Made by a program: the position numbers and the translations under genes. A stretch of DNA of 64,000 bases from Candidatus Methylomirabilis sp. (GTDB lineage Bacteria > Muiribacteriota > Ozemobacteria > Ozemobacterales > Ozemobacteraceae), in NCBI GenBank assembly GCA_020722725.1, contig DYKG01000002.1, forward strand, positions 111,436 to 175,435, read 5' to 3'. The stretch's first letter is position 1. Each line of letters opens with the position of its first letter. The notes under the pieces are model-generated. The model was not told where the DNA came from and made no database searches. It saw only the letters and a list, made by a program, of their open reading frames with translations. This document shows positions 10,093-45,681 of the stretch, in pieces.

Positions 10093-10093
10093 A

Positions 10094-10747
10094 ATGAAAA
10101 GAGGATTTAATCTGATCGAGATGATGGTAGCAATGATTATACTTTCAATGCTGCTCACCGCCCTTTATCAGAGTTTCTCAGCTGGTCAAAGAAATGCCAC
10201 AGAGATCATGGAAAGCCATCAAATCAACGAAGAAGTTGATCGAAACATACAAAAGCTGATCGAAGATGTCCGAGAATCAAACTACATTGACGAGCACTGC
10301 CCCCCCACCCTGAAAGCGGCAGAATTAGCCAATCACAAGACATCTTCGCCCGAAAACATTTTAATGTTCACCAAAATTAATTATGATTTTTCCAAAGAAC
10401 CGGCTGATCTTCCTGATGGAACCTGCAATTATACTCAGACCAGGGTTAAATACTATGTGACGAAAGATGACGAAGACGACCCAAACAGCACTTATGTTCT
10501 CATGCGCCATCTGACCCCCTTTGATAACCGCCGAAAACAGATCGATTCGGAAATTCATGAATATGAAGTTCTCAAAGGTCTCAGTGAATGCATTTTTTAT
10601 CGATTGGATGACCCCGATTCTTCCAGATCTGGCAATTTATACATTAGACTTAAGATAGCACGAAAAGATCGCAATGAAAAAACCTTCTCGAACTATGAAA
10701 ATGATATTCTGATATCGGTGATGGAAAGAGGCTCACCCCCAGAATGA
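10094..10747 (+). CDS. Type IV minor pilin / pseudopilin (PilW/GspJ-like)
   Basis: MKRG|FNLIEMMVAMIILSMLL prepilin motif; start moved to ATG 10094. Confidence 0.85.
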   Translation: MKRGFNLIEMMVAMIILSMLLTALYQSFSAGQRNATEIMESHQINEEVDRNIQKLIEDVRESNYIDEHCPPTLKAAELANHKTSSPENILMFTKINYDFSKEPADLPDGTCNYTQTRVKYYVTKDDEDDPNSTYVLMRHLTPFDNRRKQIDSEIHEYEVLKGLSECIFYRLDDPDSSRSGNLYIRLKIARKDRNEKTFSNYENDILISVMERGSPPE

Positions 10748-31214: not shown

Positions 31215-32903
31215 ATGTTTAAGAGAAAAAAAATCGGACAACTGCTGATCGAAGCAGGCCATATTGGTGAAAAAGAGCTGAACATCGGTCTTGCCGAGCA
31301 GAAGAAGCGCGGCAAACGTATCGGTCAGGTTCTTATTGAGCTGGGCTATCTTTCTGAAGACAAGCTTTTGCCTATTCTGGGCAAACAGCTGAAGGTGCCA
31401 TTCGTAGATTTGAGCAAGGTCGAGATCAAACCTGAAGTTCTCAAGATGGTTCCAGAAAAGATCTGCCGCAAACACAATCTGGTGCCAATCAATTTTGACG
31501 GCAAGAGCCTCATGATCGGCATGGCCGACCCTCTCGACGTTTTCATCATCGATGAAATACAGTTTCAGAACAACTGTGAAGTTGTAAGGGCTATCTGCTC
31601 AGAAAATCAGATCGCAGACTGCACCGACAAGCTTTATGTTGCCGGTGCCATGGCCGACGCACTCAGCGCACTTACATCAGGCAACGGAGACGGAGCGACA
31701 GATGGCGGAGCCCTTGATGGCCTGAAAAAGGCTTCTGAAGAAACGCCGATAATCAAGCTGGTAAATCTGATTCTGACCTCAGCGGTGCAAAAAGGTGCAT
31801 CAGATATTCACATCGAACCGGATGAAGGCGAGCTGAGAGTGAGATTACGCATAGATGGCAACCTGATTATTACCATGAACCTGCAGCCAGAAGCGTTGCC
31901 CTCGGTCATGTCGAGAATCAAGATTCTCAGCGGCATGGATATTTCTGAGCGCCGACTGCCGCAAGATGGCCGTATCCAGATGATCATCATGGACAAGCCC
32001 ATCGATTTCCGTGTAAACACCATTCCAACAGCCTGGGGCGAAAAGGCCTGCCTGCGAATTCTTGACAAATCGAATGTTAACGTTCAACTCGAACAGATGG
32101 GTTTTTCCCCATTAAACTTCAATATGATTCAGAAGGCAATCAATTCGCCAAACGGCATGTGTCTGGTTACCGGGCCGACCGGGTCGGGGAAAACAACCAC
32201 GCTTTATTCATGCCTTAATGCGATTAAAGGACCTGACATCAACATCTGTACAGTTGAGAACCCGGTCGAATATAAGCTCAAATACATCAATCAGGTTCAG
32301 GTAAGGCCTGAAATCGAATTGAACTTTTCAACGGTTCTACGTGCCTTTCTACGCCAGGACCCGGATGTCATCATGTTGGGTGAGATCCGCGATGAAGAAA
32401 CTGCGAGTATTGCGGTAGAAGCGGCATTGACCGGCCATCTGGTTTTCGCCACCCTGCATACGAACGATGCGCCGAGCACGGCGATTCGTCTGGTAGATAT
32501 GGGGGTAGAGCCATTCCTGGTTTCTTCTGCACTTTTATGCATCGTTTCGCAACGTCTGGCCCGGCGTGTCTGCAAGTTCTGCAAAGACGTCGACACCAGC
32601 ATTACACCGGAAATTATTGCAGATCTGGGCCTTCCCCCGGAATGTATAAATGAAACATATTATCGCGGAAAAGGCTGTGACAAATGCGCCAAAACCGGCT
32701 ACAAAGGTCGCGTTGGGGTTCATGAGGTAATGTATACCCACGAGAACCTCAGACGCATGATCATTCAGAAAGTTGGGCCAGATGATCTCAAGAACGAAGC
32801 TTTGAGACTTGGCATGAAAAGCTTGAAGGATGATATTGTTGCAAAATTCCAGCAAGGATTGACAACCCCCGAAGAAGTATTTGCGCTGGCGCGTTCTGAT
32901 TGA
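31215..32903 (+). CDS. pilB: Type IV pilus / T2SS assembly ATPase (PilB/GspE)
   Basis: N-terminal MshEN-like KKIGQLLIEAG; ASDIHIEP; ERRLPQDGR; Walker A GPTGSGKTT; LRQDPDVIMLGEIRD; TGHLVFATLHTND; tetracysteine motif. Confidence 0.95.
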   Translation: MFKRKKIGQLLIEAGHIGEKELNIGLAEQKKRGKRIGQVLIELGYLSEDKLLPILGKQLKVPFVDLSKVEIKPEVLKMVPEKICRKHNLVPINFDGKSLMIGMADPLDVFIIDEIQFQNNCEVVRAICSENQIADCTDKLYVAGAMADALSALTSGNGDGATDGGALDGLKKASEETPIIKLVNLILTSAVQKGASDIHIEPDEGELRVRLRIDGNLIITMNLQPEALPSVMSRIKILSGMDISERRLPQDGRIQMIIMDKPIDFRVNTIPTAWGEKACLRILDKSNVNVQLEQMGFSPLNFNMIQKAINSPNGMCLVTGPTGSGKTTTLYSCLNAIKGPDINICTVENPVEYKLKYINQVQVRPEIELNFSTVLRAFLRQDPDVIMLGEIRDEETASIAVEAALTGHLVFATLHTNDAPSTAIRLVDMGVEPFLVSSALLCIVSQRLARRVCKFCKDVDTSITPEIIADLGLPPECINETYYRGKGCDKCAKTGYKGRVGVHEVMYTHENLRRMIIQKVGPDDLKNEALRLGMKSLKDDIVAKFQQGLTTPEEVFALARSD

Positions 32904-32926
32904 TGTAATAAACAGGAGATTTTGCG

Positions 32927-34126
32927 ATGCCAAAATACGATTGTGAAGTTAAAGATTCTAAAGGTGATATAATCAAAACCGCTCTTGAGGCCCCTAACCT
33001 TCAGGAACTGGCAAATCGTCTTTCAGACAAGGGCTACTACCTGGTAAAAGCCAAAGAGGTAAAAGAAGGCGGTGGCTTCAGTTTTGGCGGTAGCGTTTCG
33101 AAAAAAGAAATGATGGTATTTACGGTTCAGCTTGCCACTCTGGTAGGCGCTGCGATTCCATTGGTGGAAGCAATAGGAATTCTGGCAGATCAGACGCAGA
33201 ATCAGTATTTCAAAAACATCTTGAATTCTATTGGAAAAGATCTCAATTCGGGGCAATCTTTTTCAGTTTCGATCAGAAAATTTCCCAGGATTTTCGACAA
33301 AATTTATTGCAATATGTGTGAAGCCGGCGAAGCCGGCGGTATGCTCGACCAGGTTCTCAACCGCCTGGCAGCCTTTGCTGAAGCCGACGCAGAGATTCGC
33401 GGCAAGATCAAAGGCGCACTCACCATGCCGGTAATTCAGCTGGCTCTGGCGGTTCTGGGGGTTGTGTTTCTTCTGGTAAAAATCTTCCCGAACTTTTCTA
33501 CAATGTTTAAGAAAATGAAAGTTGAGCTGCCCCAAATTACACAGGTAATGATGTTCGCTTCTGACACTCTATTGAATAATTACGTTATGGTCGGCCTTGG
33601 AACTCTTGGTTCGATTATCGGCTTTTATTTCTTTATTAAAACACCAATTGGCAGTCGAATAATCGCAATTATTTCGCTTAAGGGACCAATTATCGGCCCA
33701 TTAACCCAAAAAATTGCGGTCAGCCGCTTTTCCAGAACATTCTGTTCGTTGCTTGGCGCAGGTGTTCCGATCATGCAGGCGCTACAGATTACTTCTTCGG
33801 TTATGGGTAACCCTTTGATGGAAGAAATGATTTCTCAAATGTCCATTGGGGTTCAACAGGGCAACACTCTTGCGAGCACACTGGTAAAGGTTGACATTTT
33901 CCCACCAATGGTTAAAAAGATGATTGAAGTCGGAGAAAACACCGGTAATCTGGATGTTATGTTGACAAAAGCCGCCGACTTTTACGACCGCGAAGTGAAA
34001 GAAGCCCTCGATGGCCTTACTTCGGCAATCACCCCGCTACTGACAGTGGCCATGGGTATGGTAATCGGCACCATCGCCTTATCTGTTTTTATGCCTCTGT
34101 TTAAAATGACTGAGAGCATGAAGTAA
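32927..34126 (+). CDS. pilC: Type IV pilus / T2SS platform protein (PilC/GspF)
   Basis: QLATLVGAAIPL, AGEAGGMLDQVL, GVPIMQAL and VGENTGNLD.ML motifs; three TM segments. Confidence 0.95.
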   Translation: MPKYDCEVKDSKGDIIKTALEAPNLQELANRLSDKGYYLVKAKEVKEGGGFSFGGSVSKKEMMVFTVQLATLVGAAIPLVEAIGILADQTQNQYFKNILNSIGKDLNSGQSFSVSIRKFPRIFDKIYCNMCEAGEAGGMLDQVLNRLAAFAEADAEIRGKIKGALTMPVIQLALAVLGVVFLLVKIFPNFSTMFKKMKVELPQITQVMMFASDTLLNNYVMVGLGTLGSIIGFYFFIKTPIGSRIIAIISLKGPIIGPLTQKIAVSRFSRTFCSLLGAGVPIMQALQITSSVMGNPLMEEMISQMSIGVQQGNTLASTLVKVDIFPPMVKKMIEVGENTGNLDVMLTKAADFYDREVKEALDGLTSAITPLLTVAMGMVIGTIALSVFMPLFKMTESMK

Positions 34127-34127
34127 T

Positions 34128-34724
34128 TTGTCAAGCTCAGATTTGGAGTATTTTGAGTATCAGCGAAACCGAGGTTTTTTTCGAACCTTAGTAAGAAGTT
34201 TTTATTTAAGAAGAATTGCAAGTTACTCAGTGGGTATGTCGATTGATTATGGCTGCGGTACGGGCGAGCTTTTGCGCTACTTACCAAAAAACTCAATAGG
34301 TCTTGAGGTAAATATCAAGACGGTTGAATATTGCGAAAAAGAAGGTTTTAAAGTTTTTAAAATAGCTAAAACACTACCTTCAGAGACCCTCAAACCATTC
34401 ATCGGCAAACCGTTTAAAACAATCATTTTCAATCATATTCTGGAGCATATTCCAAAACCGGAATTGTTTCTGAACAATTTATTTGGCTTTCTTTCAGGCA
34501 CTGATTTTTCCAGATTGATTGTGGTTTCACCGGGAAAAAGAGGATTTTTCTCGGACAAAACGCATGAAGTTTTCATTGATAAAAACTGGTTTAAAATAAA
34601 CAACTTTTATTCATATCCAAATGTGAAGACAGTTAAAAGCTATCATTTTCCAATAAACTTTTTAAGCGCAGGTAATTTTTTCACTCACAATGAGTGGCAT
34701 CTAATTCTTGATTTGAAGAAGTAA
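34128..34724 (+). CDS. Class I SAM-dependent methyltransferase
   Basis: IDYGCGTG motif I and HILEHI motif; TTG start right after the pilC stop. Confidence 0.82.
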   Translation: MSSSDLEYFEYQRNRGFFRTLVRSFYLRRIASYSVGMSIDYGCGTGELLRYLPKNSIGLEVNIKTVEYCEKEGFKVFKIAKTLPSETLKPFIGKPFKTIIFNHILEHIPKPELFLNNLFGFLSGTDFSRLIVVSPGKRGFFSDKTHEVFIDKNWFKINNFYSYPNVKTVKSYHFPINFLSAGNFFTHNEWHLILDLKK

Positions 34725-34730
34725 AATGGT

Positions 34731-35756
34731 ATGGAACCAATCGTTTCAATTATAATTTTGAACTGGAATGGCTTTCAACACCTTAACGAATGTTTAACCA
34801 GCCTGAAAAAACAAACATTTAAAAATTTTGAATGTATCATGGTTGATAATGGTTCAACTGATGGGTCTTTAGATTATCTTGAAAAGAACCACCAATGGCT
34901 AAAATTAATCAAGCTGGAAAAAAACATAGGATTTTCTGCTGGAAATAATGTTGGCCTGAAAAATTCCTTGGGAAAGTATATCGTCACCCTTAACAACGAC
35001 ACGGCAGTTGATTCTAACTGGCTGCGAGAATTGGTCAAGATAGCCGAAAAAAATCCAAAAGCAGGAATGTTTGCATCCAGAATATGTTCATACCATGATA
35101 AAGACACTATCGACTCGCTTGGGATGCAGATTTGCCTTGACGGCATGTCCAGAGGAGCATTTCGGGGCAAAAAATATTCTATGCTGAAGCACGTCCCGTT
35201 TAAAATTTTATTGCCATCCGCCTGCGCAGCTCTTTATAAGAGAGAAATGCTTGATCAGACTGGCTTCTTTGATGAGAGTTTTTTTGCCTATTGCGAAGAC
35301 ACGGATCTGGGTCTAAGAGGTATAAGATTTGGCTGGGAGTCAGTTTTAGCCAAGGATGCAATAGTATTCCACAAATATTCATCAACGGCCGGGTCCTTCT
35401 CCCCATTTAAAATTTATCTGGTCGAAAGGAATCACTTCTGGTGTTCTGCCAAGAATTTGCCATTAATTCTCCTGATTTTATTACCTTTAACGACACTTTT
35501 CCGATATATTTTTCAAGCAATAATTTTATTGGGTGGTCATGGATCAGGAAATGAATTTAAGCAAAGCGATGCCCGTATAAAATGTTTTTTAGCCTTCTCT
35601 AAAGGGGTTTTTCATGGTATTTTTTATTCTTGGAAGAAAATTCTTAAAAGATTCGGCTATCTAAACGCTTGGAAAATCAAAGATGCTGAAATGACAAAAA
35701 AAATAATACGGCATAGGTTATCTTTTCCTAAACTTCTAGATTGCCAAGAGAAATGA
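34731..35756 (+). CDS. GT2 family glycosyltransferase
   Basis: SIIILNWNG, VDNGSTDGS, GFSAGNN, LNND and FFAYCEDTDL motifs. Confidence 0.92.
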   Translation: MEPIVSIIILNWNGFQHLNECLTSLKKQTFKNFECIMVDNGSTDGSLDYLEKNHQWLKLIKLEKNIGFSAGNNVGLKNSLGKYIVTLNNDTAVDSNWLRELVKIAEKNPKAGMFASRICSYHDKDTIDSLGMQICLDGMSRGAFRGKKYSMLKHVPFKILLPSACAALYKREMLDQTGFFDESFFAYCEDTDLGLRGIRFGWESVLAKDAIVFHKYSSTAGSFSPFKIYLVERNHFWCSAKNLPLILLILLPLTTLFRYIFQAIILLGGHGSGNEFKQSDARIKCFLAFSKGVFHGIFYSWKKILKRFGYLNAWKIKDAEMTKKIIRHRLSFPKLLDCQEK

Positions 35757-36472
35757 AACAGACAAAATCAGTCCTTTTGTTGATACCGTGCTTTAACGAG
35801 GAGTTGTCAATAGCAAACCTCCTCGAAGAAATAAAGGCTGCCTGCCCTGGCTATCAGGCTGTGGTAATTAATGATGGATCGAAAGACCAAACTTCTGCAG
35901 TGGTAAAAACCAAAGAAAATACAATTCTTCTCGATCTGCCAGTCAATCTTGGAGTTGGAGGAGCGGTTCAAACCGGCTTCAAATTTGCAAGAATGGTCAA
36001 TGCAGAATATGCAGTAAAAATAGACGGTGATGGACAACACTCCCCGAATTTCATTCCTCAAATGATAGAAACGCTATCTGAAAGAAAATCTGACATTGTT
36101 ATCGGCAGCAGATTCTTGAATTCAACCGGGTTCAAATCGTCAACTATTAGACGTTTCGGCATTTACTTTCTACAAAAGCTTTGTCTTGTTCTCACCGGAC
36201 GAAATATTAGTGATCCAACATCGGGTTTTCGAGCATATAATCGAACAGCAATAGAGTTCCTCGCTGATCATTACCCGTCTTTTGATTACCCAGAACCTGA
36301 AGAAATAATCCTTGCCAGCAAAAATGGGCTGGAGTTAAACGAGATTCCGGTAGAAATGCGAGAACGCCAGAAAGGTTCTTCAACGATATCCTCATCGGGG
36401 TCTGTCTATTACATGTTGAAAGTGACTTTAAGCATGCTGTTTATATTCATACGTAACCGGGAAAAAAGATGA
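35753..36472 (+). CDS. GT2 DPM1/PpgS-like polyprenol-phosphate glycosyltransferase
   Basis: IPCFNEE, INDGSKDQT, NLGVGGAVQTG, DGDGQH, IGSRF, DPTSGFRA and REr..G.S motifs; start taken at ATG 35753. Confidence 0.88.
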   Translation: MKQTKSVLLLIPCFNEELSIANLLEEIKAACPGYQAVVINDGSKDQTSAVVKTKENTILLDLPVNLGVGGAVQTGFKFARMVNAEYAVKIDGDGQHSPNFIPQMIETLSERKSDIVIGSRFLNSTGFKSSTIRRFGIYFLQKLCLVLTGRNISDPTSGFRAYNRTAIEFLADHYPSFDYPEPEEIILASKNGLELNEIPVEMRERQKGSSTISSSGSVYYMLKVTLSMLFIFIRNREKR

Positions 36473-36544
36473 GGATGGTTAACTTTTTTCCGAAAGAACA
36501 ACGCAGTCGTCCTCAATTTTTTTTCGATTAGCCAGAGGTAACCC

Positions 36545-36898
36545 TTGATTAATTCACTTGATAGAATTCAAATCATCTCAATTTTCAGCAGTATTTTATT
36601 TTTGTTTTTCATTCTGGAATTAATAAGAAAAAAACAATTAAAAGAAGCTTATGCCCTGCTTTGGATTATCTTCAGTTTTATTTTTCTATTTTTTTCATGC
36701 TGGAAAACGGGCATGGATTATTTTGCGGCAAGAGTGGGCATCTATTATCCGCCAGCTTTTCTATTTTTGATTTTGATTGTGGCGATAATAGCAATCCTGG
36801 TGCAGTTTTCGGTTCTAGTGTCTCTTCAGGGGGAAAAGATCAGAATTTTGACCCAGGAAATAACTTTGCTAAAAACAAAACTTGAATCAAAGAAATAG
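36545..36898 (+). CDS. DUF2304 family membrane protein
   Basis: LIRKKQLKEAYALLW, GIYYPP and IRILTQEI.L pattern; adjacent to a DPM-like GT2. Confidence 0.85.
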   Translation: MINSLDRIQIISIFSSILFLFFILELIRKKQLKEAYALLWIIFSFIFLFFSCWKTGMDYFAARVGIYYPPAFLFLILIVAIIAILVQFSVLVSLQGEKIRILTQEITLLKTKLESKK

Positions 36899-36899
36899 A

Positions 36900-39116
36900 T
36901 TATTCCAGCTCTTTGACCAGCAAAATTTTCCCATTCAGAACGTCTTTTTCCGTTACCAGACATTTCCCTTTTCGCTCTTTTCCGGAGCTTTTCCAGGAAA
37001 GTTTATAAAAATCGTCGGTAACAACTCTGCCGCTATTAAATTGATTTGAGTATGGAACAGTAAATTCAAAACGACCATTTTCATCAGAAATGACCTCTCT
37101 TTTGTATAAAACCAAGGTTTTATCAAATTGGCATCCCAAAGACAAATCGACTTTGCTGTACGGATCTGCTGACCCGGAAATTTTGGCTCCTGCCACAAAT
37201 TCGTAAACCATAAATTCGGGACCAGTAAACCGGTCAATCTGACTGGCAGAATAAACCATTCTAAGTCTTGATGCGGGGGATTCGAATTTTCCAGTTTTTT
37301 TAATCGCGCAGCAATCTGCAAGCCATGAAAAAAAAGTGTTTTCAAATTTCTTTTCCATAAATTTACTCTCATCAAAATCCGGAAAAAAAGAGTAAAAATC
37401 ATCTGGAACGTTTGCTCGCTCTTTATAAGCATACTGGTATCTGACAATATTCTCGGGAATATTTCTCTGGTCTGCCAGAAGATACCTTACGGAGTATTTA
37501 TTCAAAAAAGAATAGACTTCACTTTCAGATTCAGAAGTTAGAATTTGCGCCATTTTCTTGTATCCGATAATTGTATTGTTAACAAGTGTTGGCCTTTGAC
37601 CATAGAAGTTAATCCGGTTTCCCTCACCCCAGTAGCAGAAAAAACAGTATTCAGGACGGTTTGAATCAATATAGCCGCCGGTAATCGGAGTTTGTGTTCT
37701 AATCCACTCGTAAAGTTCAACCTGGTCTTTTGAAAAATGAAATCCGCGAATGAAATATGGGAAATTCAAGAGAAAATTCGTTAATAGAAGTGGAATCAAC
37801 AAAACAGCAGCTCTAATGTTCAGTAAATTACGATTGGGATTGCGTGAGACTATGGCCGCAAAAATGGAATAAATCGCAACGCCGGCAGCAAAATTGACCC
37901 CAGCCCCGAACCAGCGAAAAAATCTCAGACTATAAACGCTGAGAGTTAAAAACAAAAGACACCAGTCGCGAATAATTCTGGCTTCTCCATCGAAAATGCC
38001 CCTGGGAGAGGAAGTTAAAAACACCGGCCATAGAAACAGCAGGAGTCCCAGATATTTCATTGCATTGATCAGCCATGCCGGATTGATAATACTGTCAATA
38101 CTCATCAGTGGCTTTAATTCTGAAATAGACTGCATCAGCAAATCATTTTTACCGAAGAAAGCAATCCCCTGAGTAATCTGCTCATTAAAAATAAAAAAGA
38201 TCATCACTGGCAAGGCCAGGATTAACGGAATGATCTTTTTAACAAAAGTTAGATCGAATGAACCGGGGGGGGGAAAAGCCAGGGTCAACCTGACACATAA
38301 TGCACCAAGAAGAATGATAGAAGGCTGAAACCAGCCAAAAGAAGCCATACTAAAGCTATTGTTCCCTGAAGAAATCAAAAAAAGAAAAACGAGAAAAGAA
38401 GCGATTACCATGGAAGAATAGGAGTACTGTGCGAATCTTTCAAAAAAAGAACTTTTACCAAGCCAGAGAAAGAAAACATAAAGGCAGACAAAACCGTAAA
38501 ACAATGGAGTCCCGGACCAGGTAAGGATAAATGAGGCAGAAACCAGAGCCCCGACAACCAGCAGGGCTTTTTTACCTGCTTCGCAGAATTTCCATGAGGA
38601 AAAAATCCACAGCCAGATGAAAAAATTATTAAGAAAGTGGTAATCCACTCTCATAAACCACGAATTCATACCCGCAACAGCTCCAGGCACCATACAAGCA
38701 GAAATGACCAAGGTTAAGCCCTGGCTCTTCGTCTTTTTCCAGGTAAACCAGGCAAAAACACAGCAAATAAGCCAGCCAATTAAAGGGGGCAAAGCACCAA
38801 CGATGTATTCAGGAGCAACTGCGCTTTCTGGAAAAAGGTAGAAGAAAAAAAGTGATAAATGAACCATCAAGGCCATGTGCAATGGCGGATAAATTATGGG
38901 CAGCCTGCCTGGAAAGCTGCTATATTCATCAAAAGCCGGCTTTTCTCCTCTCAGCAGCGTTTGTTCAAAAAGTCTGAGAAAAAGCAATGAATCTGGGTCT
39001 TCGACCTGAAATCTACCAGGATTTTGGTTCTGGAAAAAAAAACTTGAAAAATACAGGGCAAGGCATGATATTAGAACAATACAGGTCACTAATTTAAATC
39101 CAGCATTTCTTACCAT
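36900..39116 (-). CDS. STT3/AglB/PglB-like oligosaccharyltransferase with a divergent WWD motif
   Basis: EDPDS loop, YPP, DYH (DxD/DHH-like), SISE, multiple TM helices, YWGEG..I..YGQRP in place of WWDxG, and an AglB-like C-terminal beta domain (GAKISG...SDENGRFEFTVPYS). Confidence 0.82.
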   Translation of the reverse strand: MVRNAGFKLVTCIVLISCLALYFSSFFFQNQNPGRFQVEDPDSLLFLRLFEQTLLRGEKPAFDEYSSFPGRLPIIYPPLHMALMVHLSLFFFYLFPESAVAPEYIVGALPPLIGWLICCVFAWFTWKKTKSQGLTLVISACMVPGAVAGMNSWFMRVDYHFLNNFFIWLWIFSSWKFCEAGKKALLVVGALVSASFILTWSGTPLFYGFVCLYVFFLWLGKSSFFERFAQYSYSSMVIASFLVFLFLISSGNNSFSMASFGWFQPSIILLGALCVRLTLAFPPPGSFDLTFVKKIIPLILALPVMIFFIFNEQITQGIAFFGKNDLLMQSISELKPLMSIDSIINPAWLINAMKYLGLLLFLWPVFLTSSPRGIFDGEARIIRDWCLLFLTLSVYSLRFFRWFGAGVNFAAGVAIYSIFAAIVSRNPNRNLLNIRAAVLLIPLLLTNFLLNFPYFIRGFHFSKDQVELYEWIRTQTPITGGYIDSNRPEYCFFCYWGEGNRINFYGQRPTLVNNTIIGYKKMAQILTSESESEVYSFLNKYSVRYLLADQRNIPENIVRYQYAYKERANVPDDFYSFFPDFDESKFMEKKFENTFFSWLADCCAIKKTGKFESPASRLRMVYSASQIDRFTGPEFMVYEFVAGAKISGSADPYSKVDLSLGCQFDKTLVLYKREVISDENGRFEFTVPYSNQFNSGRVVTDDFYKLSWKSSGKERKGKCLVTEKDVLNGKILLVKELE

Positions 39117-39194
39117 CGTGAGGACTCCTGATTAACTTCCAGGAAAAAATATAGCATATGGGCAGGAAATTAAAGAAATTTATTAATTTCAAAC

Positions 39195-39223
39195 TTGACA
39201 CTGCCGATAAGGGTACCTATATT
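39195..39223 (+). promoter_or_regulatory. Near-consensus sigma-70 promoter for the pilin gene
   Basis: TTGACA-17 bp-TATATT; GGAGG RBS at 39244 before ATG 39257. Confidence 0.7.
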
Positions 39224-39256
39224 GCCCATGCGACAATAAACATGGAGGGAAAACTT

Positions 39257-39826
39257 ATGATTAATCGCAAACAAGGCTTTACCTTGATGGAGATAATGGT
39301 AGTTATTATCGTTATCGCCGTTCTGGCTTCGGTGGCAGGCCCAATGATTGGCTCTATTACAGACCAGGGTCGCACGTCTGCGACCAAGTCAAAAATGAGT
39401 TCTTTGAAAAGCGCAATGCTGGCTTACAAATCGGATGTTGGGCGCATCCCATTTTCTGGCTTGGCAGAATGCGTTGGTTGTGCGGCTGCTTACAACGATG
39501 CATGGAACAATTATCTTGCCGATAATGAGGCAAATAATGTTCTAGTTAACGAAGATGTTGGCTGTACAACTGAGTTTTGTATTACTAACTATGGCCGCAA
39601 ATGGAAGGGGCCTTATATGGACTCTTCGCCCGAAGACTTTATGATGGATTCCTGGGGAGTCAAAATCGAATATTTTGCTCATATTAACACGAAGTCCGTC
39701 TATCTGAGATCCGCTGGGCCAGACATGGCCTATGAAGCAACAGATATTGACTCTGTTGTTAAAGGCAATGATGAAGGAATCGATGACTTTGCCCAGTCAA
39801 TAATTAAATTGAGAAAATTAAACTAA
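39257..39826 (+). CDS. GspG-like major pseudopilin / type IV pilin
   Basis: RKQG|FTLMEIMVV prepilin motif; GspG-type WKGPY...DSWG...Y...LRSAGPD C-terminus; four cysteines. Confidence 0.88.
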   Translation: MINRKQGFTLMEIMVVIIVIAVLASVAGPMIGSITDQGRTSATKSKMSSLKSAMLAYKSDVGRIPFSGLAECVGCAAAYNDAWNNYLADNEANNVLVNEDVGCTTEFCITNYGRKWKGPYMDSSPEDFMMDSWGVKIEYFAHINTKSVYLRSAGPDMAYEATDIDSVVKGNDEGIDDFAQSIIKLRKLN

Positions 39827-39863
39827 GCTTTTAAGTATTTAACAACATTTGCCATAATCAAAG

Positions 39864-39913
39864 TTGCCCTCCCAGAAGCAGATGCTTATAATGAAAGCAT
39901 CTGCTTTTATTTT
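39864..39913 (+). promoter_or_regulatory. Perfect 12-bp inverted repeat (terminator or operator) overlapping a sigma-70 promoter
   Basis: AAGCAGATGCTT-ATAATGA-AAGCATCTGCTT followed by TTATTTT; TTGCCC(39864)-17 bp-TATAAT(39887). Confidence 0.6.
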
Positions 39914-39924
39914 AAGGGAATTTA

Positions 39925-41787
39925 ATGCCTGATCAGCAAGCCTTTCAAAGTTTTGTTGCCATAGATATTGGCAGCTTCTCAATGAAATTCGCCTATGTAG
40001 AAAAAGGTGAAGATGGCGAATTTCTGCTCAAAACCCTTGCCCAAATGCCAATACCGCCTTATGAGCAGGAAATTCCCGATGAAAAGCGCGAAACGATGAG
40101 CAAAGACGATGTGCGGGAGCACTGCCTGAAGGAGTTGCGACAGTTTCTGACCACACATCTCACCGAGCTTTTGTATGATAACGAGATTCAGACCAAAAGG
40201 GCGATTTCATTTGCTTCTAACCGCGAGGTAACCATAAGATGCATTGAAATTCCTCCAGTTCCGGAAAAAGAAAAGTTATTGGAAGCGGTTACGGCTGAGG
40301 CGAACAAGCAGATGCCATTTTCAATGGGCAATGCGGTACTGGGTTATCACGTTCAGGGCGATGTAATAAAAGAAGAGAAAGCCCTGACTCAGATAATGGT
40401 AGCAGCTTTACAAAAAGATATAATCGATTATGTCAACCTTAATTTGAGGGGCGGCGGCCTGTCAAATGAAGGAATTCTGACTCTTCCCCAGGCAATAGAG
40501 TTGGCTCTGAAGAAGCAGCTTGAGCCATATTCGCAAAACGACAAGAAAGTGGCCATCATTCACTGCGGAAATTCTACGACTTCAATTCTTATTTACAAGA
40601 ACGGCAAGATTCAATTTTCTCGCGATATCAACATGGCCGGGGCAACAATCACAGCCGCAATCTATGCCGGTGGCGAATTTGAAGGGCAACAGATCAAATT
40701 CAAACACCCTGGCGAAGCAACCGAATTAAAGCATAAACTTGGAGTAATGCCGCCCGAGGAAATGAAAGATTTGAAGGGTGTAGAGAAATTCGCTGCTACC
40801 AAAATATTTGAAACGGTTGAAAAGATTTTTCAGCATATTCAGCTATCAATCAGCTTTTATATTTCACAAACCGGTGAAACTGCAGTAGATAAGATAATTT
40901 TAACCGGTGGTTCAGCAGGCATGACGAATTTCAAGGAATTCATCGAAGAAAGTCTTGAAGTTCCGACAGTTCTGGCGGATCCATTTGGTTCAATGAAAAT
41001 CGGAGAAATAAAATACGATAATGAGAAACGTTTGATTGATTCCCCGAGCCTTGCCCCGATTCTGGGAGTTGCAATGTATCAGGGAGAGCCGGATATAATC
41101 AACTTTATCGATATCCTTTTCCCAAACCGCAAAAGCCAGAATTTGAATCTTTCAGGCGTAGGCTCAAAATTCGGCGGGAATATTTCCGCGAAATTATTCC
41201 AGCTTGATGAGACAAAACTTAGAATCCTGGCGATTCTGCTCGCCATTCTGATTATTGCTATCGGTTTAATTCCGGTAGTCAACATCAGAAACAAGGTTGC
41301 CGAAGCAAAAGCAAATGATTTAAAAATGAGAAAGAAGCTCCAGCAGCTGCAGTCATCGCAAAAAGAGGTAACTCAATTACTGGCAGAGCAGGAATCAATG
41401 AAAAAATACTCAACAGTCTATTCTGCTTTAAAGGGAAATCTTTGCAACAACTCTTTAATTATAATTGAGATCGCGAGTCTAACGCCGAAGGAAATCTTTC
41501 TTACCGCAGCAGATTTCAATTTCAATCAGTCGCCCGCGTCATTCAAGTTAATGGGTCACGCCGATAATTCCGACAGCATTTTCGAGTATCTAAACATTAT
41601 CGGAAAATCCAGCGTTTTTTCCAATCCAATTCTTGATAAAACTCAAGAAGTGCCTATTGACGAGACCAGGTATTTCCTGCGGTTCGAGTTGAGCGGCAAG
41701 ATAAAAGACAGCGCAATAAAATTCATCGATAAGTCTGCCGAAGCCGACAACAATGTAATGCAGGAAGAAATTACTGAGGAGCCATAA
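39925..41787 (+). CDS. pilM: PilM-PilN fusion alignment protein
   Basis: Actin-like IDIGSFSMK, FSRDINMAG and IILTGGSA motifs; then INFI linker, TM, coiled coil and a PilN-type periplasmic domain (P.EIFLT..L.G.A). Confidence 0.85.
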   Translation: MPDQQAFQSFVAIDIGSFSMKFAYVEKGEDGEFLLKTLAQMPIPPYEQEIPDEKRETMSKDDVREHCLKELRQFLTTHLTELLYDNEIQTKRAISFASNREVTIRCIEIPPVPEKEKLLEAVTAEANKQMPFSMGNAVLGYHVQGDVIKEEKALTQIMVAALQKDIIDYVNLNLRGGGLSNEGILTLPQAIELALKKQLEPYSQNDKKVAIIHCGNSTTSILIYKNGKIQFSRDINMAGATITAAIYAGGEFEGQQIKFKHPGEATELKHKLGVMPPEEMKDLKGVEKFAATKIFETVEKIFQHIQLSISFYISQTGETAVDKIILTGGSAGMTNFKEFIEESLEVPTVLADPFGSMKIGEIKYDNEKRLIDSPSLAPILGVAMYQGEPDIINFIDILFPNRKSQNLNLSGVGSKFGGNISAKLFQLDETKLRILAILLAILIIAIGLIPVVNIRNKVAEAKANDLKMRKKLQQLQSSQKEVTQLLAEQESMKKYSTVYSALKGNLCNNSLIIIEIASLTPKEIFLTAADFNFNQSPASFKLMGHADNSDSIFEYLNIIGKSSVFSNPILDKTQEVPIDETRYFLRFELSGKIKDSAIKFIDKSAEADNNVMQEEITEEP

Positions 41788-42410
41788 TGGCAGACGAAGC
41801 TTTACTAACTAACTGGCTGGCAAAAGCCAAAGAAGATCCGAAAAACGCGGCGCCGCCTGTTGTTATAATTCTGGCGCTTTTTTTCGGTGGTTATAAAGCG
41901 TTGTATGCGCCGAACACTGCAATTCTGCTAAAACAAGATAAGGCTACCAAAGGGATCGAAGCGCAAATTAAAAAGCTTGAAAGTGCTGTTGAAAATCTTG
42001 AAGATATCAAGCTGGAAATTGAAGAAAAAAAAGCTCAATGGAAAAAGACCCAGCAGCTTTGCTACCGGAAATCTGAGATTACCAGGTTTTTACGTCGGGT
42101 AAGAGAGCTTGCCACCCTGGCGGGAATTCCGGTTAAGAGTGTTAATCCTCAGCAGATTTCCCCACTTCCGCTTGGTGAACTGGCTTTCGAGAAGCTTCCT
42201 GTTTCCATTTATTTCACCGGCGATCTGGTAACCTTGGGCATTTTTTTAAGATTAATTGAGAAAGAAGAAAAGATTACCTTTCTTAATCTACCAAGTCTGG
42301 TTCCCAATGCCAGCGGCACTTTTGAACTCGAACTGGTTCCGACAACGATACTAATTCCTGATGAGCTGGTAATTGAGGATAAGCCTGCTGAAACGGATGA
42401 AAAGCCATGA
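41787..42410 (+). CDS. pilO: PilO family protein
   Basis: TM, coiled coil, EITRFL.....LA...GI.V.SVNP and LPVSI.F.G....LG.FL; position after pilMN. Confidence 0.8.
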   Translation: MADEALLTNWLAKAKEDPKNAAPPVVIILALFFGGYKALYAPNTAILLKQDKATKGIEAQIKKLESAVENLEDIKLEIEEKKAQWKKTQQLCYRKSEITRFLRRVRELATLAGIPVKSVNPQQISPLPLGELAFEKLPVSIYFTGDLVTLGIFLRLIEKEEKITFLNLPSLVPNASGTFELELVPTTILIPDELVIEDKPAETDEKP

Positions 42411-43150
42411 AGGGAAAACATATTTTCTGCTTCAGTCTGATCATTCTTTCAGTCGTGATGGGGCTGCACTGGTTCAAAAACAAGCCCAAACCAAAGAAAA
42501 AAGTTTCTGATCGCCCACGAGTGGCCTTGAACCTTGATGATATGCAGATTCAAGATGATGATCCCAACGGGAAAAAGCCGGCACAGAACCCGGAGAACCC
42601 GGATGAAACAAAAGAAGATCCTGAAAACGGCACCCCCAAAGATCCCAAGAACCCTGATGCAACTTCGAACGAAGGCCCGGAAAATCCACCAGATCCGCCA
42701 GAAGTTGCAAATGCTTCAGATACTCAACCGGTTTCTGAGACAGCATCTGGAACCGGTGATCTTCGGCCGGAGCTTAATGACCCGGTAATTATGGCGGTTA
42801 AAGCCATTCCGAGAAACCCCTTCGAGCCTTCGCCCTATGCCAGGCTGGTTGAAAAATTGCGTGAGCTCGAAGAAAAGCCAGACAAAGAAGAAGTTAAAAA
42901 GATCACAGAATTAATCAAAGCCAATTTCACCGCAACCATTAAAACCCGAAAAGAGCTGGTTGCCGTTATAGATTCTCGACTTTATCGAAAGGGCGACCTT
43001 TTTCAGAATCGGAAGATAACTGAAATTGGAGCTGAACTGGTTTCACTCGATACGGAATCCAAGCTTTTCCTGATTCCAAAAGTCGGGGTAGAAGTTTCAA
43101 TCGCCTCTGACGGAACCTACACTTTCGAGGATTCATATAGAAAAAACTGA
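42407..43150 (+). CDS. PilP/GspC-like protein
   Basis: TM, Pro/Asp/Glu-rich linker, RNPFEP motif and AVID..LY..GD..KI.EI small beta domain; position in the operon. Confidence 0.6.
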   Translation: MKGKHIFCFSLIILSVVMGLHWFKNKPKPKKKVSDRPRVALNLDDMQIQDDDPNGKKPAQNPENPDETKEDPENGTPKDPKNPDATSNEGPENPPDPPEVANASDTQPVSETASGTGDLRPELNDPVIMAVKAIPRNPFEPSPYARLVEKLRELEEKPDKEEVKKITELIKANFTATIKTRKELVAVIDSRLYRKGDLFQNRKITEIGAELVSLDTESKLFLIPKVGVEVSIASDGTYTFEDSYRKN

Positions 43151-43186
43151 TCAGCCATCATTTTTAGTCTTTTTTTTTCCGATAGC

Positions 43187-43678
43187 TTGAATATGCAACG
43201 CTATCAAAAATTCATTTTTTTTCTATTCTGCCTGCCAGCCATTGTGCTGCTCAACGGCTGCATCGACAAAACGATCAGACCTGAAGCCGCCATCGAGATT
43301 TCAACTGTAACCCCCTATGAGCTGACTACAACTGCAACTGATACGGCAAGCCTTCCGACAACGGCCATTACGGTAAATTCAATCAACACCGTTCCCTGTA
43401 ATTTAAAAAGTTATTCGGTGACCTATTTCAGCAGATTCGGTGAGATTATTCCGAGTTTAAGCATTCCTTCCACACCAATCGATTTGAAGCTTGCTGCAGC
43501 AGGAACAATCGACGTTACGGTCAGGCCCTACACCAGCCGGGTGGTGGATATGTTTGAGCTTTCAAATTCAGACATTTCGCCGATTCAGGCAAAAATAAAT
43601 CTGGTTTTTGAAGATTATAACAGCAACATTATTAACAAAGAGGCTCATTGTCTGATTTATAAGCCCAACAACACCTGA
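43187..43678 (+). CDS. Lipoprotein upstream of the secretin (pilotin candidate)
   Basis: Lipobox LLNGC; beta-rich; the start may be ATG 43193. Confidence 0.65.
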   Translation: MNMQRYQKFIFFLFCLPAIVLLNGCIDKTIRPEAAIEISTVTPYELTTTATDTASLPTTAITVNSINTVPCNLKSYSVTYFSRFGEIIPSLSIPSTPIDLKLAAAGTIDVTVRPYTSRVVDMFELSNSDISPIQAKINLVFEDYNSNIINKEAHCLIYKPNNT

Positions 43679-43728
43679 TGGTTAATAATTTTTGATGTCG
43701 AGCCGATACGGGGGCAAAGATTAATCTG

Positions 43729-45681
43729 ATGGAGCAAACCTATCTAATGTTGCACAATCCGGAAACACTACAAAAATGCTGTTTGGCAGCTGTTTTGCTC
43801 TTCAGCATGAATACCATTCCGGTCAATGCGCAGTCGAGAAGTGCCATCAGGGGTGCAATAAGCCATCCTGCAAAGGTTAGTCCGAGCACTTCATTTTATC
43901 CGGTTGTGAGAAATAATCATCCTGCGCCAATGGCTGCCGCTGCCCGTCCGGGCTGGACAGAAATGGGAAATGGTGCAAGAATAAGATTTTCAGAAAAAAA
44001 CTTTGCAAAAGAAAGCGGTCTTTCACCTGATGTTCTTGAAACCTTAAAAAGCCTGCAGGTTCAGGCGCCCAAGCCAGCCTACCAACTGGCGCCAGCCACG
44101 ACTTCGATAACCGGAGCAGTTTCCCAATCGCTTCAGGGCCCTGATGATGACGCACCGCCAGAACAGAGAGAAATCGGGGTTCTTGAATCAAAAATCACTT
44201 TTCCGCCGGAAAAGAATATTCGTATTCAGGATCTGGATTTCAGAAACACTACGGTTCAGGATGCCCTGAGATCGCTTGCTCAGTTGATTGAAGTAAACCT
44301 GATGCTTTCGCCGGCAATTTCGGGTAACGTTACGATTCTTTTCAGTGACGTTACCCTGGAAGAAGCCTTCAATACTCTGCTCACCAGCTACGATTTATCG
44401 TTTGCCTGGGAAGGTACAATTTTAAGAATTTTTCCAAAGGCTCAAGCACCGCTGATTACCAAGATTTTTCCAATACAGCATACCAATGCGACCGAAATAA
44501 AAACGATTGTAGATCGCATGCTGACGCCTCAACGGGGCACTTCTGAAATAGATGCACGCACCAACTCGCTGATGGTTACCGACACGGCAACCAAGCTGGC
44601 AGAAGTGAAAAGTTTGCTGCCTCAGCTCGACGTTCAGGAATCTACCGTTGACATCAGCTCTCGTCCGCTTACCGAGGTTTTCTACCTGAACTATGCAGAT
44701 GCCACCAGTCTTAGAACCCCGATTACCATGCTTTCAACCGGGGTTCAAATTCAGGAATTTTCATCAAGTTCAGCATCGCAGGCCGGGGCCGCCGGTGGCG
44801 GGGCAACGGCAGGTCGAATGGATATGATGATCATAACTGATACGCAGAATAATTTGCAGCGAATAAGAGAATTGATCGAGAAGCTTGATATTCCGCCAAT
44901 CCAGGTTACAATCGATGCTCATATTTATGAAATCGACAAGAATGAAGAAGAAAGACTGGGCATCAACTGGCAGAAGGCGATTCCAGTTCCTGGCACAACC
45001 AACAATCTTTTTGAAATGACTATCGCTCCTGAAGATGCCAACGCCGGGGGAACCGGGGTTTTCAGATTCGGCAGCCTCGATATAAATCAGTTCACCGCTC
45101 TGCTTGCAATGTTGAAAACCCACAGTTTCGCCAAGGTCTTGAGTAATCCGGTAATCACGACGTTGAACAACCGACAGGCCAACATTACGGTAGGTCAGTC
45201 GATTCCTTATGTTTCGGCCTCTCAGGTTAATGCTCAAACGGGGCAGGTTACCAATACGATTGCTCAGGCAAACGCCAACATTGCATTGGTGGTTACCCCT
45301 TCGGTTACCGGGAATGATGAAGTTTTTCTCGACATTCAGCCAACGATTTCCAGCGTTCTTGGCTTCACTGAGCTGGGAGGCAACTCTACGCCTAACCTCA
45401 GCACCCGCAGTGCGGTAACTCAAGTAATCTGCAAAAACAATCATACCATCGTAATCGGCGGTATGATCAAGACAGACAAAAGCAATACGATAAGCAAGGT
45501 TCCTTTTCTAGGTGATTTGCCCGGCATCGGAAAATTCTTTCAGAAAAAGACCCAGCGTGAAGTTAGAACTGAGCTGATTATTTTTATTACACCCCACATC
45601 GTTAACAAATATGCAAATCGCGACCGGGTTGCCGACCAGAATGTCGAATTTGGCATGCCCAGACTAACTTTACAGCCCTGA
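43729..45681 (+). CDS. pilQ: Secretin (PilQ/GspD family)
   Basis: LDFRNTTVQDALR N0 domain, DARTNSLMVTD N3 domain, QV.IDA.I.E, LGINW, VLSNP..TLNN..A.I.VG and KVPFLGDLPGIG.FF...TELIIFITP motifs. Confidence 0.93.
   Translation: MEQTYLMLHNPETLQKCCLAAVLLFSMNTIPVNAQSRSAIRGAISHPAKVSPSTSFYPVVRNNHPAPMAAAARPGWTEMGNGARIRFSEKNFAKESGLSPDVLETLKSLQVQAPKPAYQLAPATTSITGAVSQSLQGPDDDAPPEQREIGVLESKITFPPEKNIRIQDLDFRNTTVQDALRSLAQLIEVNLMLSPAISGNVTILFSDVTLEEAFNTLLTSYDLSFAWEGTILRIFPKAQAPLITKIFPIQHTNATEIKTIVDRMLTPQRGTSEIDARTNSLMVTDTATKLAEVKSLLPQLDVQESTVDISSRPLTEVFYLNYADATSLRTPITMLSTGVQIQEFSSSSASQAGAAGGGATAGRMDMMIITDTQNNLQRIRELIEKLDIPPIQVTIDAHIYEIDKNEEERLGINWQKAIPVPGTTNNLFEMTIAPEDANAGGTGVFRFGSLDINQFTALLAMLKTHSFAKVLSNPVITTLNNRQANITVGQSIPYVSASQVNAQTGQVTNTIAQANANIALVVTPSVTGNDEVFLDIQPTISSVLGFTELGGNSTPNLSTRSAVTQVICKNNHTIVIGGMIKTDKSNTISKVPFLGDLPGIGKFFQKKTQREVRTELIIFITPHIVNKYANRDRVADQNVEFGMPRLTLQP

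Follow-up and report, generated by a model that had tools for sequence, protein, structure and literature searches.

An AglB-type oligosaccharyltransferase with an altered sequon-reading motif encoded beside a sequon-free pilin in a Riflebacteria-type bacterium

The N-x-S/T sequon and the W-W-D motif that reads it are treated as universal for the oligosaccharyltransferases (OSTs) STT3, AglB, and PglB in reviews of these enzymes, among them PMC7226087 and PMC2952790. According to the first of these, the tryptophan indole NH and the aspartate of W-W-D bond to the hydroxyl group of the serine or threonine at position +2 (PMC7226087), and in a further description it is chiefly the first tryptophan and the aspartate with which the +2 hydroxyl and amide interact (PMC8479172). 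Here, we describe a 64,000-nucleotide stretch of bacterial DNA (contig DYKG01000002.1, positions 111,436 to 175,435 of the forward strand, hereafter called the window), in which the gene for a predicted AglB-type OST lies beside, and divergent from, the gene for a type IV pilin-like protein. In this enzyme, the reader aspartate is replaced by glycine, and the neighboring pilin carries glycine at the +2 position of its candidate acceptor site, a combination that is found a second time in a separate lineage of the same enzyme family.

The closest described system is archaeal AglB, which glycosylates archaeal pilins and archaellins (PMC5131992) and whose catalytic and metal-binding residues are given as D47, D161, H163, and E360 in PMC7226087. 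The window OST, like AglB a single-subunit enzyme, shares its overall fold (A. fulgidus AglB-L 7e9s, 5gmy, 3wak, and 3waj; query TM-score [TMq] 0.68-0.77), the C-terminal core and peripheral domains (Pfam AglB_core-like and AglB_L1), and the same catalytic Asp, DxH, Glu, and Arg, and by analogy it may have the same role on type IV pilins. It differs from the archaeal enzyme in its host, which is a diderm bacterium with a secretin and PilMNO, in sequence (13-14% identity to AglB-L), and in its motifs, with Y-W-G-E-G in the window OST and [YF]-W-D-x-G in its family in place of WWDYG, and an M-x-x-I string near the DK position. PglB of Campylobacter lari and C. jejuni is the bacterial single-subunit N-linking OST of this superfamily, and its W463-W464-D465 all bond to the +2 threonine (PMC7226087, PMC8479172). 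Likenesses to PglB are an M-x-x-I-type string and action in the periplasm, which would also apply to the window OST, but as a structural match PglB (3rce, 5ogl, 6gxc) is far weaker than AglB (Foldseek E-value about 2e-9, TMq 0.48-0.50). The PglB donor is diphosphate-linked and is built by the pgl locus with an initiating phosphoglycosyltransferase; in the window, no initiating phosphoglycosyltransferase was identified among the cassette genes by Pfam and NCBIfam scans.

Three other types of system are relevant. Glycosylation genes likewise adjoin the pilin gene in the systems of the O-oligosaccharyltransferases PilO/TfpO/PglL and of TfpW, and a pilus coated with sugar would result in either case. 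Those, however, are O-linking enzymes of other families; in contrast, the window OST has the N-linking STT3 fold. The second type comprises the three-part systems (mycobacterial PpgS with DUF2304, GtrA/B/C, and Haloferax AglJ), in the first of which PpgS and its DUF2304 partner are functionally linked. In the window, a family 2 glycosyltransferase (GT2) has its best matches to PpgS and AglJ and is followed by a DUF2304 gene, but the scores are far under the equivalog cut-offs, and the partner with a glycosyltransferase C (GT-C) fold is of the AglB type and not a Gtr- or arabinogalactan-modifying enzyme. Euryarchaeal N-glycosylation uses a monophosphate-linked donor, according to PMC4476749, and the combination of a PpgS/AglJ-like GT2 with DUF2304 suggests, by analogy, a monophosphate-linked donor for the window system as well. 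Lastly, Asn-2 of the Halobacterium salinarum S-layer protein is reported to be N-glycosylated even when the +2 serine is replaced by valine, leucine, or asparagine (PMC2952790). This sets a precedent for an AglB-type system that uses an acceptor independently of the hydroxyl, although the case is archaeal, its mechanism is unexplained, and the organism has a single canonical OST (PMC2952790), with no change in an enzyme motif linked to the effect.

To establish the nature of the enzyme, an AlphaFold2 (AF2) model was built on a 69-sequence alignment (A3), which gave a predicted local distance difference test (pLDDT) value of 94.8 and a predicted TM-score (pTM) of 0.93. The best Foldseek match of this model was A. 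fulgidus AglB-L (7e9s, E 2e-25, TMq 0.77), after which came eukaryotic STT3 (E 1e-16 to 1e-12) and then DPY19 and PglB. Both AF2 and Foldseek gave the GT-C architecture of an N-terminal multi-helix membrane domain and a C-terminal periplasmic mixed alpha/beta domain. The sequence profiles gave Pfam scores of 40 bits for AglB_L1 (cut-off 23.6) and 26.5 bits for AglB_core-like (cut-off 27), no match to the Pfam STT3 model at E <= 0.01, and a match of residues 26-553 to TIGR04154, the archaeosortase-A-associated OST, at 116 bits, which is under the curated cut-off of 450. D42, D158-x-H160, E333, and R398 are all intact, and D42, D158, E333, and R398 are invariant or nearly so in the family. The acidic motifs noted earlier from the sequence alone (DPD, DYH, and SISE), and YWGEG likewise, were indeed obtained when their coordinates were translated (Table 1).

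The register of the reader motif was examined by several alignments. When the family profile was aligned by hhalign with 12 canonical WWDYG homologues taken from the profile search of the family (probability 100, 684 columns), Y495-W496-G497-E498-G499 paired with W513-W514-D515-Y516-G517, and the catalytic residues paired as well: D42 with D47 (invariant), D158 and H160 with D162 and H164 (D-H-H), E333 with E346, and R398 with R417 (invariant). A phmmer search of the Protein Data Bank (PDB) paired the query segment 'fcywgegnrinf' with 'mswwdygnwily' in the C-terminal domains of A. fulgidus AglB-S (3vgp and 3vu0), and the family profile gave the same YWGEG/WWDYG register against PDB sequences with an E-value of 4e-18. 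The phmmer and hmmsearch comparisons with PDB covered C-terminal domains and not the AglB-L membrane domain, and the membrane motifs were registered by hhalign and by fold. Thus, the sequence and profile alignments, together with the fold match to AglB, bear out, column for column, the claim of the sequence-only reading that WWDxG is replaced by YWGEG, and it is YWGEG itself that pairs with WWDYG. Of the W-W-D-x-G feature of family GT66, only the second Trp and the Gly at position 5 are retained, and Tyr and Gly occupy the two positions that mainly read the +2 residue, those of the first Trp and the Asp. The M522-x-x-I525 string lies about 2 residues off the canonical Asp of the DK motif in the hhalign alignment (M in 43/51 and I or V in 45/51 family rows). 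Taken together, sequence comparison and the model support that the gene at 36900-39116 encodes a real OST of the STT3/AglB fold, with the catalytic set intact and the +2 reader altered.

How unusual this reader is was assessed from its relatives. A word-indexed search returned 8 relatives with 27-46% identity, one of them a named Candidatus Riflebacteria protein, and a profile search of 1.84 billion representatives gave 2463 matches. Some 50 of these, with scores above about 200 bits (P0001-P0052), make up the close family, the remainder being distant STT3-like proteins. Relatives' loci in public metagenome-assembled genomes are assigned to Candidatus Rifleibacteriota or Candidatus Ozemobacter; the genome-contig locus search used the 5 closest sequences and gave 5 loci. 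At E <= 1e-20, the OST family was found in 34/50 genomes of one taxonomic family and in 0/36 genomes of other families in the phylum, so that among the genomes searched it is confined to one Riflebacteria family of the Ozemobacter type. The genome of the window (91% complete) has a single STT3-like gene copy. In the 51 filled rows of the close family, position 495 is F in 23, Y in 21, and never W; position 496 is W in 49; position 497 is D in 42, G in 4, N in 2, S in 2, and H in 1; position 499 is G in 50; and position 500 is N in 48. Judged from these rows, the family motif is [YF]-W-D-x-G-N, and the window OST belongs to a minority without the Asp. On the family tree, the G-type sequences P0001, P0003, P0047, and P0049 are spread over three or more separate positions. 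E498 follows G497 in 5/5 G-type sequences (W-G-E-G-N); D-type sisters have W-D-E-G-N, and since they already carry the Glu, E498 is inherited. Further non-Asp variants occur in extra paralogues that are not beside the major pilin: W-H-[SI]-G-N, W-S-Y-G-N, R-N-[ED]-S-N, and H-N-W-G-H.

Outside the close family, the Asp column was filled in 103 distant STT3-like representatives (P0053-P0156), and it holds D in 57, S and G in 16 each, E in 6, and T in 3, with W-G-[DE]-G in 7 of the 103. The distant non-Asp proteins retain the catalytic D, DxH, E, and R. Thus, non-Asp readers appear, from these alignments, to be widespread among uncharacterized STT3-like proteins.

The longest open reading frame (ORF) of the neighboring pilin, which is transcribed divergently from the OST, starts at 39158 on the plus strand, 33 codons before the likely start. 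The true start is probably the ATG at 39257, which is preceded by a GGAGGG Shine-Dalgarno sequence and by a sigma-70-like site that matches at 11/12 positions. The extension 39158-39256 is probably untranslated because this promoter-like site falls inside it. The protein has the features of a prepilin, with the leader MINRKQG ending in Gly, followed by FTLMEIM (F-T-L-x-E) and a hydrophobic helix (Pfam N_methyl 30 bits, TIGR02532), and a mature part of 182 amino acids (aa). Against TIGR01710 (GspG) it scored 63 bits, under the cut-off of 88.85. The AF2 model (pLDDT 85.4, helix 10-61) had its best fold matches to the PulG/EpsG/GspG pseudopilins with target TM-scores of 0.59-0.72 and weak E-values of at least 0.016. 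The window pilin is thus GspG-like by Pfam and NCBIfam, and weakly so by predicted fold. Across 26 aligned pilins, the first ~50 residues and the region around W-K-G-P-Y-M-D are nearly identical, and the window pilin has a variable insert of roughly 45 residues. As reported from the sequence alone, it has an Asn-rich stretch (39491-39556), four Cys, and no N-x-S/T; the mature protein contains 11 Asn residues.

A candidate acceptor site became apparent in the pilin alignment. In 14/26 pilins, N-Y-x stands directly before [RK]-[RK]-W-K-G-P-Y, with x being S in seven cases, T in one, and R, N, and G in two each, so that 8/14 pilins have N-Y-S/T at this place. The model of the pilin places N111 in a loop, where a short helix (112-115) begins. 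N-Y-G occurs in the pilins of exactly the two G-type loci for which the gene context is available, the window and L036. L036, a metagenome contig, was the sole locus returned with a degenerate DNA pattern for W-G-E-G-N...Y-Y..R-P; a related-locus search of metagenome contigs gave 150 pattern matches, among which there was no relative. On an OST tree built without the motif columns, the window OST groups with L001a/L002a (W-D-E-G-N-R), and the L036 OST groups with L012/L013 (W-D-E-G-N-L) and L014, whose pilin has N-Y-N. The pilin of L001 has I-T-N-Y-S and four sequons, that of L002 is cut by the contig end, and the pilins of L012 and L013 have I-T-N-Y-S with three sequons and one sequon, respectively. 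Both G-type pilins have zero N-x-S/T, versus 4, 3, and 1 in the sisters. By sequence, these are two independent contrasts in one direction: the enzyme changes from D to G, the +2 residue of the pilin from S to G, and all pilin sequons are lost. The pilin serine codon is TCA or TCT in D-types and the glycine codon is GGC in both G lineages, so that each S to G event required at least two base changes; in the enzyme, GAT changed to GGT or GGA. The survey of G-type enzymes and their neighbors therefore agrees with the sequence-only reading in that both G-type loci with context have sequon-free N-Y-G pilins, whereas 42/51 of the family keep the Asp.

The adjacency of the enzyme and pilin genes is conserved. 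Taking the best locus of each genome and 1.5-kb flanks, a prepilin-type ORF lies beside the OST in 27/30 genomes, almost always divergent, the exceptions being L016, L030, and the truncated L027. The full order pilB-pilC-[glycosylation genes]-OST<>pilin-pilMN-pilO-x-x-secretin is present in the window and in L001, and in L003, L004, L005, and L036 the order matches for the part that each contig spans. The island always contains DUF2304 and GT2 genes, and variously genes for a methyltransferase, B12-radical-S-adenosylmethionine (SAM) enzymes, and sulfatase-family proteins. In L037 (1209-9358), which comes from the genus of the window, two tandem OST paralogues with the motifs W-H-S-G-N and W-S-Y-G-N are divergent from another small type IV pilin (114 aa, ending in ...E-S-N-D-S) and a prepilin peptidase. 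A functional link between OST and pilin is likely because the pairing recurs with this second pilin type. The earlier suggestion that the enzyme is tied to its neighboring pilin has therefore gained ground. A complex prediction of the OST (A3) with the mature pilin (A4, residues 8-189) scored 0.00 in two runs and weighs neither way.

The reading that we favor, tentatively and with somewhat less than even confidence, is that this is an active, pilus-linked, single-subunit N-OST of the AglB type, in which +2 recognition operates without a Ser/Thr hydroxyl. The cassette that lies inserted between pilC and the gene for the major pilin would make a short glycan on polyprenyl monophosphate: the 243-aa PpgS/AglJ-like GT2 with DUF2304 would load a sugar onto polyprenyl phosphate, the 341-aa GT2 would extend the glycan, and the methyltransferase would perhaps methylate it. 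After flipping, the OST would attach the glycan, in the periplasm, to an Asn of the GspG-like pilin, perhaps with other exported proteins as additional substrates. The best candidate for the site is the Asn of I-T-N-Y-x-R-K-W-K-G-P-Y, probably N111. In catalysis, D42 and E333 would act on the carboxamide and D158/H160 on the metal. In most lineages, x-W-D would read position +2 and the pilin would offer N-Y-S/T; in the window lineage, W-G-E would face N-Y-G. It is from the Asp to Gly change and the N-Y-G of the pilin in this lineage that a +2 recognition independent of the Ser/Thr hydroxyl would follow. Judging from the aligned residues, such recognition could not use the canonical Asp-hydroxyl bond; contacts with the peptide backbone may serve instead, and the hydrogen bond to the +2 amide may have passed to E498. 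A stronger version, that a natural STT3-family OST with a W-G-E variant reads an N-x-G or otherwise hydroxyl-free pilin site and that enzyme and substrate have switched together at least twice in one bacterial family, we regard as unlikely. The new acceptor rule proposed in the sequence-only reading thus keeps the altered reader and gains two independent pairs of D to G and S to G changes, and it is weakened by the finding that Asp loss is a minority state and by E498, which could supply the carboxylate.

Several observations weigh against the favored reading. The co-variation rests on two lineages, that is, on only two G-type loci with context, and it was noticed after looking. The absence of sequons from the window pilin is true, but by itself not remarkable: when its soluble part was shuffled 5000 times, zero sequons were obtained in 18% of cases, with 1.56 sequons expected, so that it falls within chance (P about 0.18). 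Among D-type enzymes, 5/22 adjoin sequon-free pilins (L003, L017, L020, L023, and L028), and N-Y-R or N-Y-N stands at the candidate site in four D-type loci; the site is therefore no obligate sequon even with an Asp in the reader. As a sign of N-glycosylation, sequon enrichment was looked for in the 26 pilins and none was seen, with 32 sequons observed versus 45.6 expected. Moreover, E498 may simply replace the Asp and leave the canonical rule in place, the D to G and S to G changes remove both hydrogen-bond partners with no obvious new complementary pair, and a site lost jointly by enzyme and pilin would leave the same picture. An association of non-D enzymes with sequon-free pilins in general (3/4 versus 5/22) was also considered and set aside as too weak, with a P of ~0.07 (one-sided hypergeometric, relatedness uncorrected).

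Among the alternatives, the one that survives best, although we consider it somewhat unlikely, is that the enzyme keeps the canonical N-x-S/T rule, which would be read by Y495, W496, E498, and I525, and that it glycosylates other exported or periplasmic proteins and not the pilin. The pilin would merely have lost its sites, and the adjacency of the genes would reflect inherited gene order and co-regulation. The constant Glu after Gly in the G-type sequences is in line with this, as are the retained W496, G499, N500, and M-x-x-I string, and the recurrence of W-G-[DE]-G in distant STT3-like proteins, which suggests that a shifted carboxylate can serve. The D-type enzymes beside sequon-free pilins and the chance level of zero sequons fit it as well, and a single STT3-like gene in a 91%-complete genome fits a general role. 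However, the Glu is also present in the D-type sisters and is hence no compensating novelty, and the Gly at the same pilin position in both independent G lineages, each requiring more than a single base change, is left unexplained. The recurrence of the OST-pilin pairing with a second pilin type also argues against it.

In a second alternative, the function is relaxed or decaying: the pilin N-Y-S was lost and the reader Asp drifted, and the OST now binds peptides poorly or nears loss. The enzyme Asp and the substrate Ser are indeed gone together, and losses do occur, since the family is absent from 16/50 genomes of its taxonomic family (E <= 1e-20; some of these genomes are incomplete). However, the ORF is intact with every catalytic residue kept, the same holds for the accessory genes (GT2, DUF2304, and methyltransferase), and the end branches (0.63 and 0.45) are not notably long. 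To look for decay, a comparison was made at the 96 columns that are conserved in 80% or more of 26 D-type enzymes adjoining a pilin gene. The window OST differs at 11/96 of these columns, versus 14 in each of its sisters and a range of 1-36 in D-types; the L036 OST differs at 7/96, and its sisters at 1-2. There is no excess change at conserved columns in the G-type OSTs and, thus, no sign of decay. The recurrence of the D to G state at several tree places likewise does not resemble random replacement, and we consider decay quite improbable. Of the 96 columns, only 497 and 330 differ in both G-type enzymes; a further convergent change at 330 was rejected, as the D-type sisters of the window OST also have S there.

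A third alternative, which appears very improbable, is a non-protein acceptor, with the GT-C enzyme moving a sugar from polyprenyl phosphate to a lipid, glycan, or envelope polymer as in a three-part system of the Gtr or ArnT type. The trio of PpgS-like GT2, DUF2304, and GT-C enzyme does resemble such systems, the Pfam STT3 model has no match at E <= 0.01, and ArnT, Aft, and Emb are among the weaker fold matches. However, AglB and STT3 match at E-values of 1e-25 to 1e-12 versus 1e-5 or weaker for Aft, ALG, PMT, and ArnT, the enzyme has the complete C-terminal part of AglB, core and peripheral domains included, its peptide-binding loop is in register with WWDYG, and the link to the pilin is conserved. 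Finally, the O- or S-linked transfer to pilin Ser, Thr, or Cys that had been offered as an option is extremely improbable: its sole support is the four Cys and 25 Ser and Thr residues of the pilin, the Cys count varies from 2 to 4 in five close pilins with no invariant or near-invariant Cys column among the 26, and D42 and E333 are invariant, their counterparts in PglB and AglB holding the Asn carboxamide (PMC7226087). Known bacterial O-oligosaccharyltransferases (PglL/PilO/TfpO) and S-glycosyltransferases belong to other folds.

The locus itself is a type IV pilus or type II secretion system (T2SS)-like cluster whose genes from pilB to the secretin lie at 31215-45681 in the window, which is otherwise an ordinary bacterial chromosome with ispD, xseA, accC, topA, and rnhA among its housekeeping genes. 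The features are listed in Table 1. By Pfam, the operon carries PilM/N/O and not GspC/L/M. The 341-aa GT2 of the glycosylation island has NCBIfam matches far under their cut-offs and probably extends a lipid-linked sugar. The 243-aa GT2 is, by its best NCBIfam matches, of the PpgS/AglJ type and not an equivalog (NF058614 PpgS, 97 bits, cut-off 370; TIGR04182 AglJ, 88 bits, cut-off 325). All window 31-mers that were sampled were recovered in an independent assembly of the run that probably represents the source sample (share 1.00). This was the one DNA run found to contain the window, and there was no RNA run among the matches; two more runs from that study shared nearly no words with it.

Table 1. 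Features of the pilus and glycosylation cluster, with the motifs of the OST and the candidate site of the pilin (positions in the window)
Feature	Position	Strand	Basis or remark
PilB/GspE-type assembly ATPase	31215..32903	+	Pfam T2SSE 433 bits and MshEN; first gene of the cluster
PilC/GspF platform protein	32927..34126	+	Pfam T2SSF 190.7 bits; same position in L001, L003, L005
SAM-dependent methyltransferase, glycosylation island	34128..34724	+	Pfam Methyltransf_23/11; homologue at equal place in L005
GT2, 341 aa	34731..35756	+	Pfam Glycos_transf_2 95.7 bits
GT2, 243 aa, polyprenyl-phosphate-sugar synthase type (PpgS/AglJ/DPM1-like)	35741..36472	+	NCBIfam; also in L003, L005, L036
DUF2304 small membrane protein, GT2 synthase partner	36545..36898	+	Pfam PF10066 84 bits; kept in L001, L003, L005, L036
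AglB/STT3-fold OST, 738 aa	36900..39116	-	Pfam, AF2, Foldseek, hhalign
M522-A-Q-I525, M-x-x-I string near DK/MI position	37542..37553	-	Tentative assignment
Y495-W496-G497-E498-G499, at the place of WWDYG	37620..37634	-	phmmer and hhalign register
S330-I-S-E333, external loop 5 TIXE/SVSE-type motif, catalytic Glu (AglB E360, PglB E319)	38118..38129	-	E333 invariant
D158-Y159-H160, second metal-binding motif (DxH)	38637..38645	-	D158 in 45/45 filled family rows
D40-P41-D42; D42 is the first catalytic Asp (external loop 1; AglB D47, PglB D56)	38991..38999	-	D42 invariant in 69 sequences
Sigma-70-like promoter site, divergent intergenic region	39195..39223	+	TTGACA-17-TATATT, 11/12; consensus match only
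GspG-like major prepilin, 189 aa	39257..39826	+	Pfam N_methyl and T2SSG
N111-Y112-G113, candidate acceptor site, directly before R-K-W-K-G-P-Y	39587..39595	+	Pilin alignment
PilM-PilN fusion	39925..41787	+	Pfam PilM_2 103 bits and PilN
PilO	41787..42410	+	Pfam PilO 27.7 bits
Secretin, PilQ/GspD type	43729..45681	+	Pfam Secretin 157.7 bits, Secretin_N, STN

Some further properties of the locus were recorded. The glycosylation island (window 34001-38000) has a GC content of 0.377-0.382, versus 0.41-0.49 in all other 2-kb bins, which fits either horizontal acquisition or fast evolution. In the islands of relatives, B12-binding radical-SAM, SPASM radical-SAM, and LtaS/sulfatase-family proteins are encoded (L001 17343-18776, L002 7807-9243, L003 3077-9834, and L005 8765-11990), and since these radical-SAM and LtaS/sulfatase genes are not in the window, the glycan or its substituents probably differ between lineages. 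In L037, a 763-aa sulfatase-family membrane protein is encoded after the tandem OST paralogues. Between pilO and the secretin gene of the window there are two genes without a Pfam family on the plus strand, at 42407-43150 (247 aa, with a Pro/Glu/Asp-rich region) and 43187-43678 (163 aa, with a lipoprotein-like LNGC start). ORFs of comparable length occupy this gap in L001, L004, and L005, and these genes may stand in for PilP-type components. Downstream of the secretin gene, a HEAT-repeat gene, and one further gene, 49008-54947 (plus strand) encodes a giant protein of 1979 aa that combines 13 Big_5 Ig-like domains with Kelch repeats and could be a surface or secreted product of the pilus or T2SS-like machine and a further glycosylation target. 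A second prepilin-like gene set at 9628-13089 (plus strand) encodes a 154-aa protein with a G|MSMIE-type leader and without N-x-S/T, a 235-aa protein with the N_methyl motif, and then a 781-aa protein; the prepilin-like genes of this set are likely minor pilins.

Literature searches, mostly of titles and abstracts, returned no report of an AglB-like bacterial enzyme with a pilin partner, and none on glycosylation or oligosaccharyltransferases of Riflebacteria. If the pairing is functional, this would be, to our knowledge, the first known case of bacterial pilins N-glycosylated by an archaeal-type enzyme; if it is not, the window holds an ordinary divergent OST in a conserved gene cluster. What can be said of the family is that this is a bacterial, pilus-linked group of AglB-type enzymes in which the first Trp of the reader is never present and the reader Asp has been repeatedly replaced, and that twice, independently, a change of the reader Asp was accompanied by one at position +2 of the probable acceptor. 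The contribution of this window is the paired D to G and S to G change. If functional, such pairings would provide natural enzyme/substrate pairs for dissecting and re-engineering the specificity of single-subunit OSTs, which would be useful in bacterial glyco-engineering, and if the co-switch is true, the matched natural D/S and G/G pairs would show how the universal sequon rule can be rewritten.

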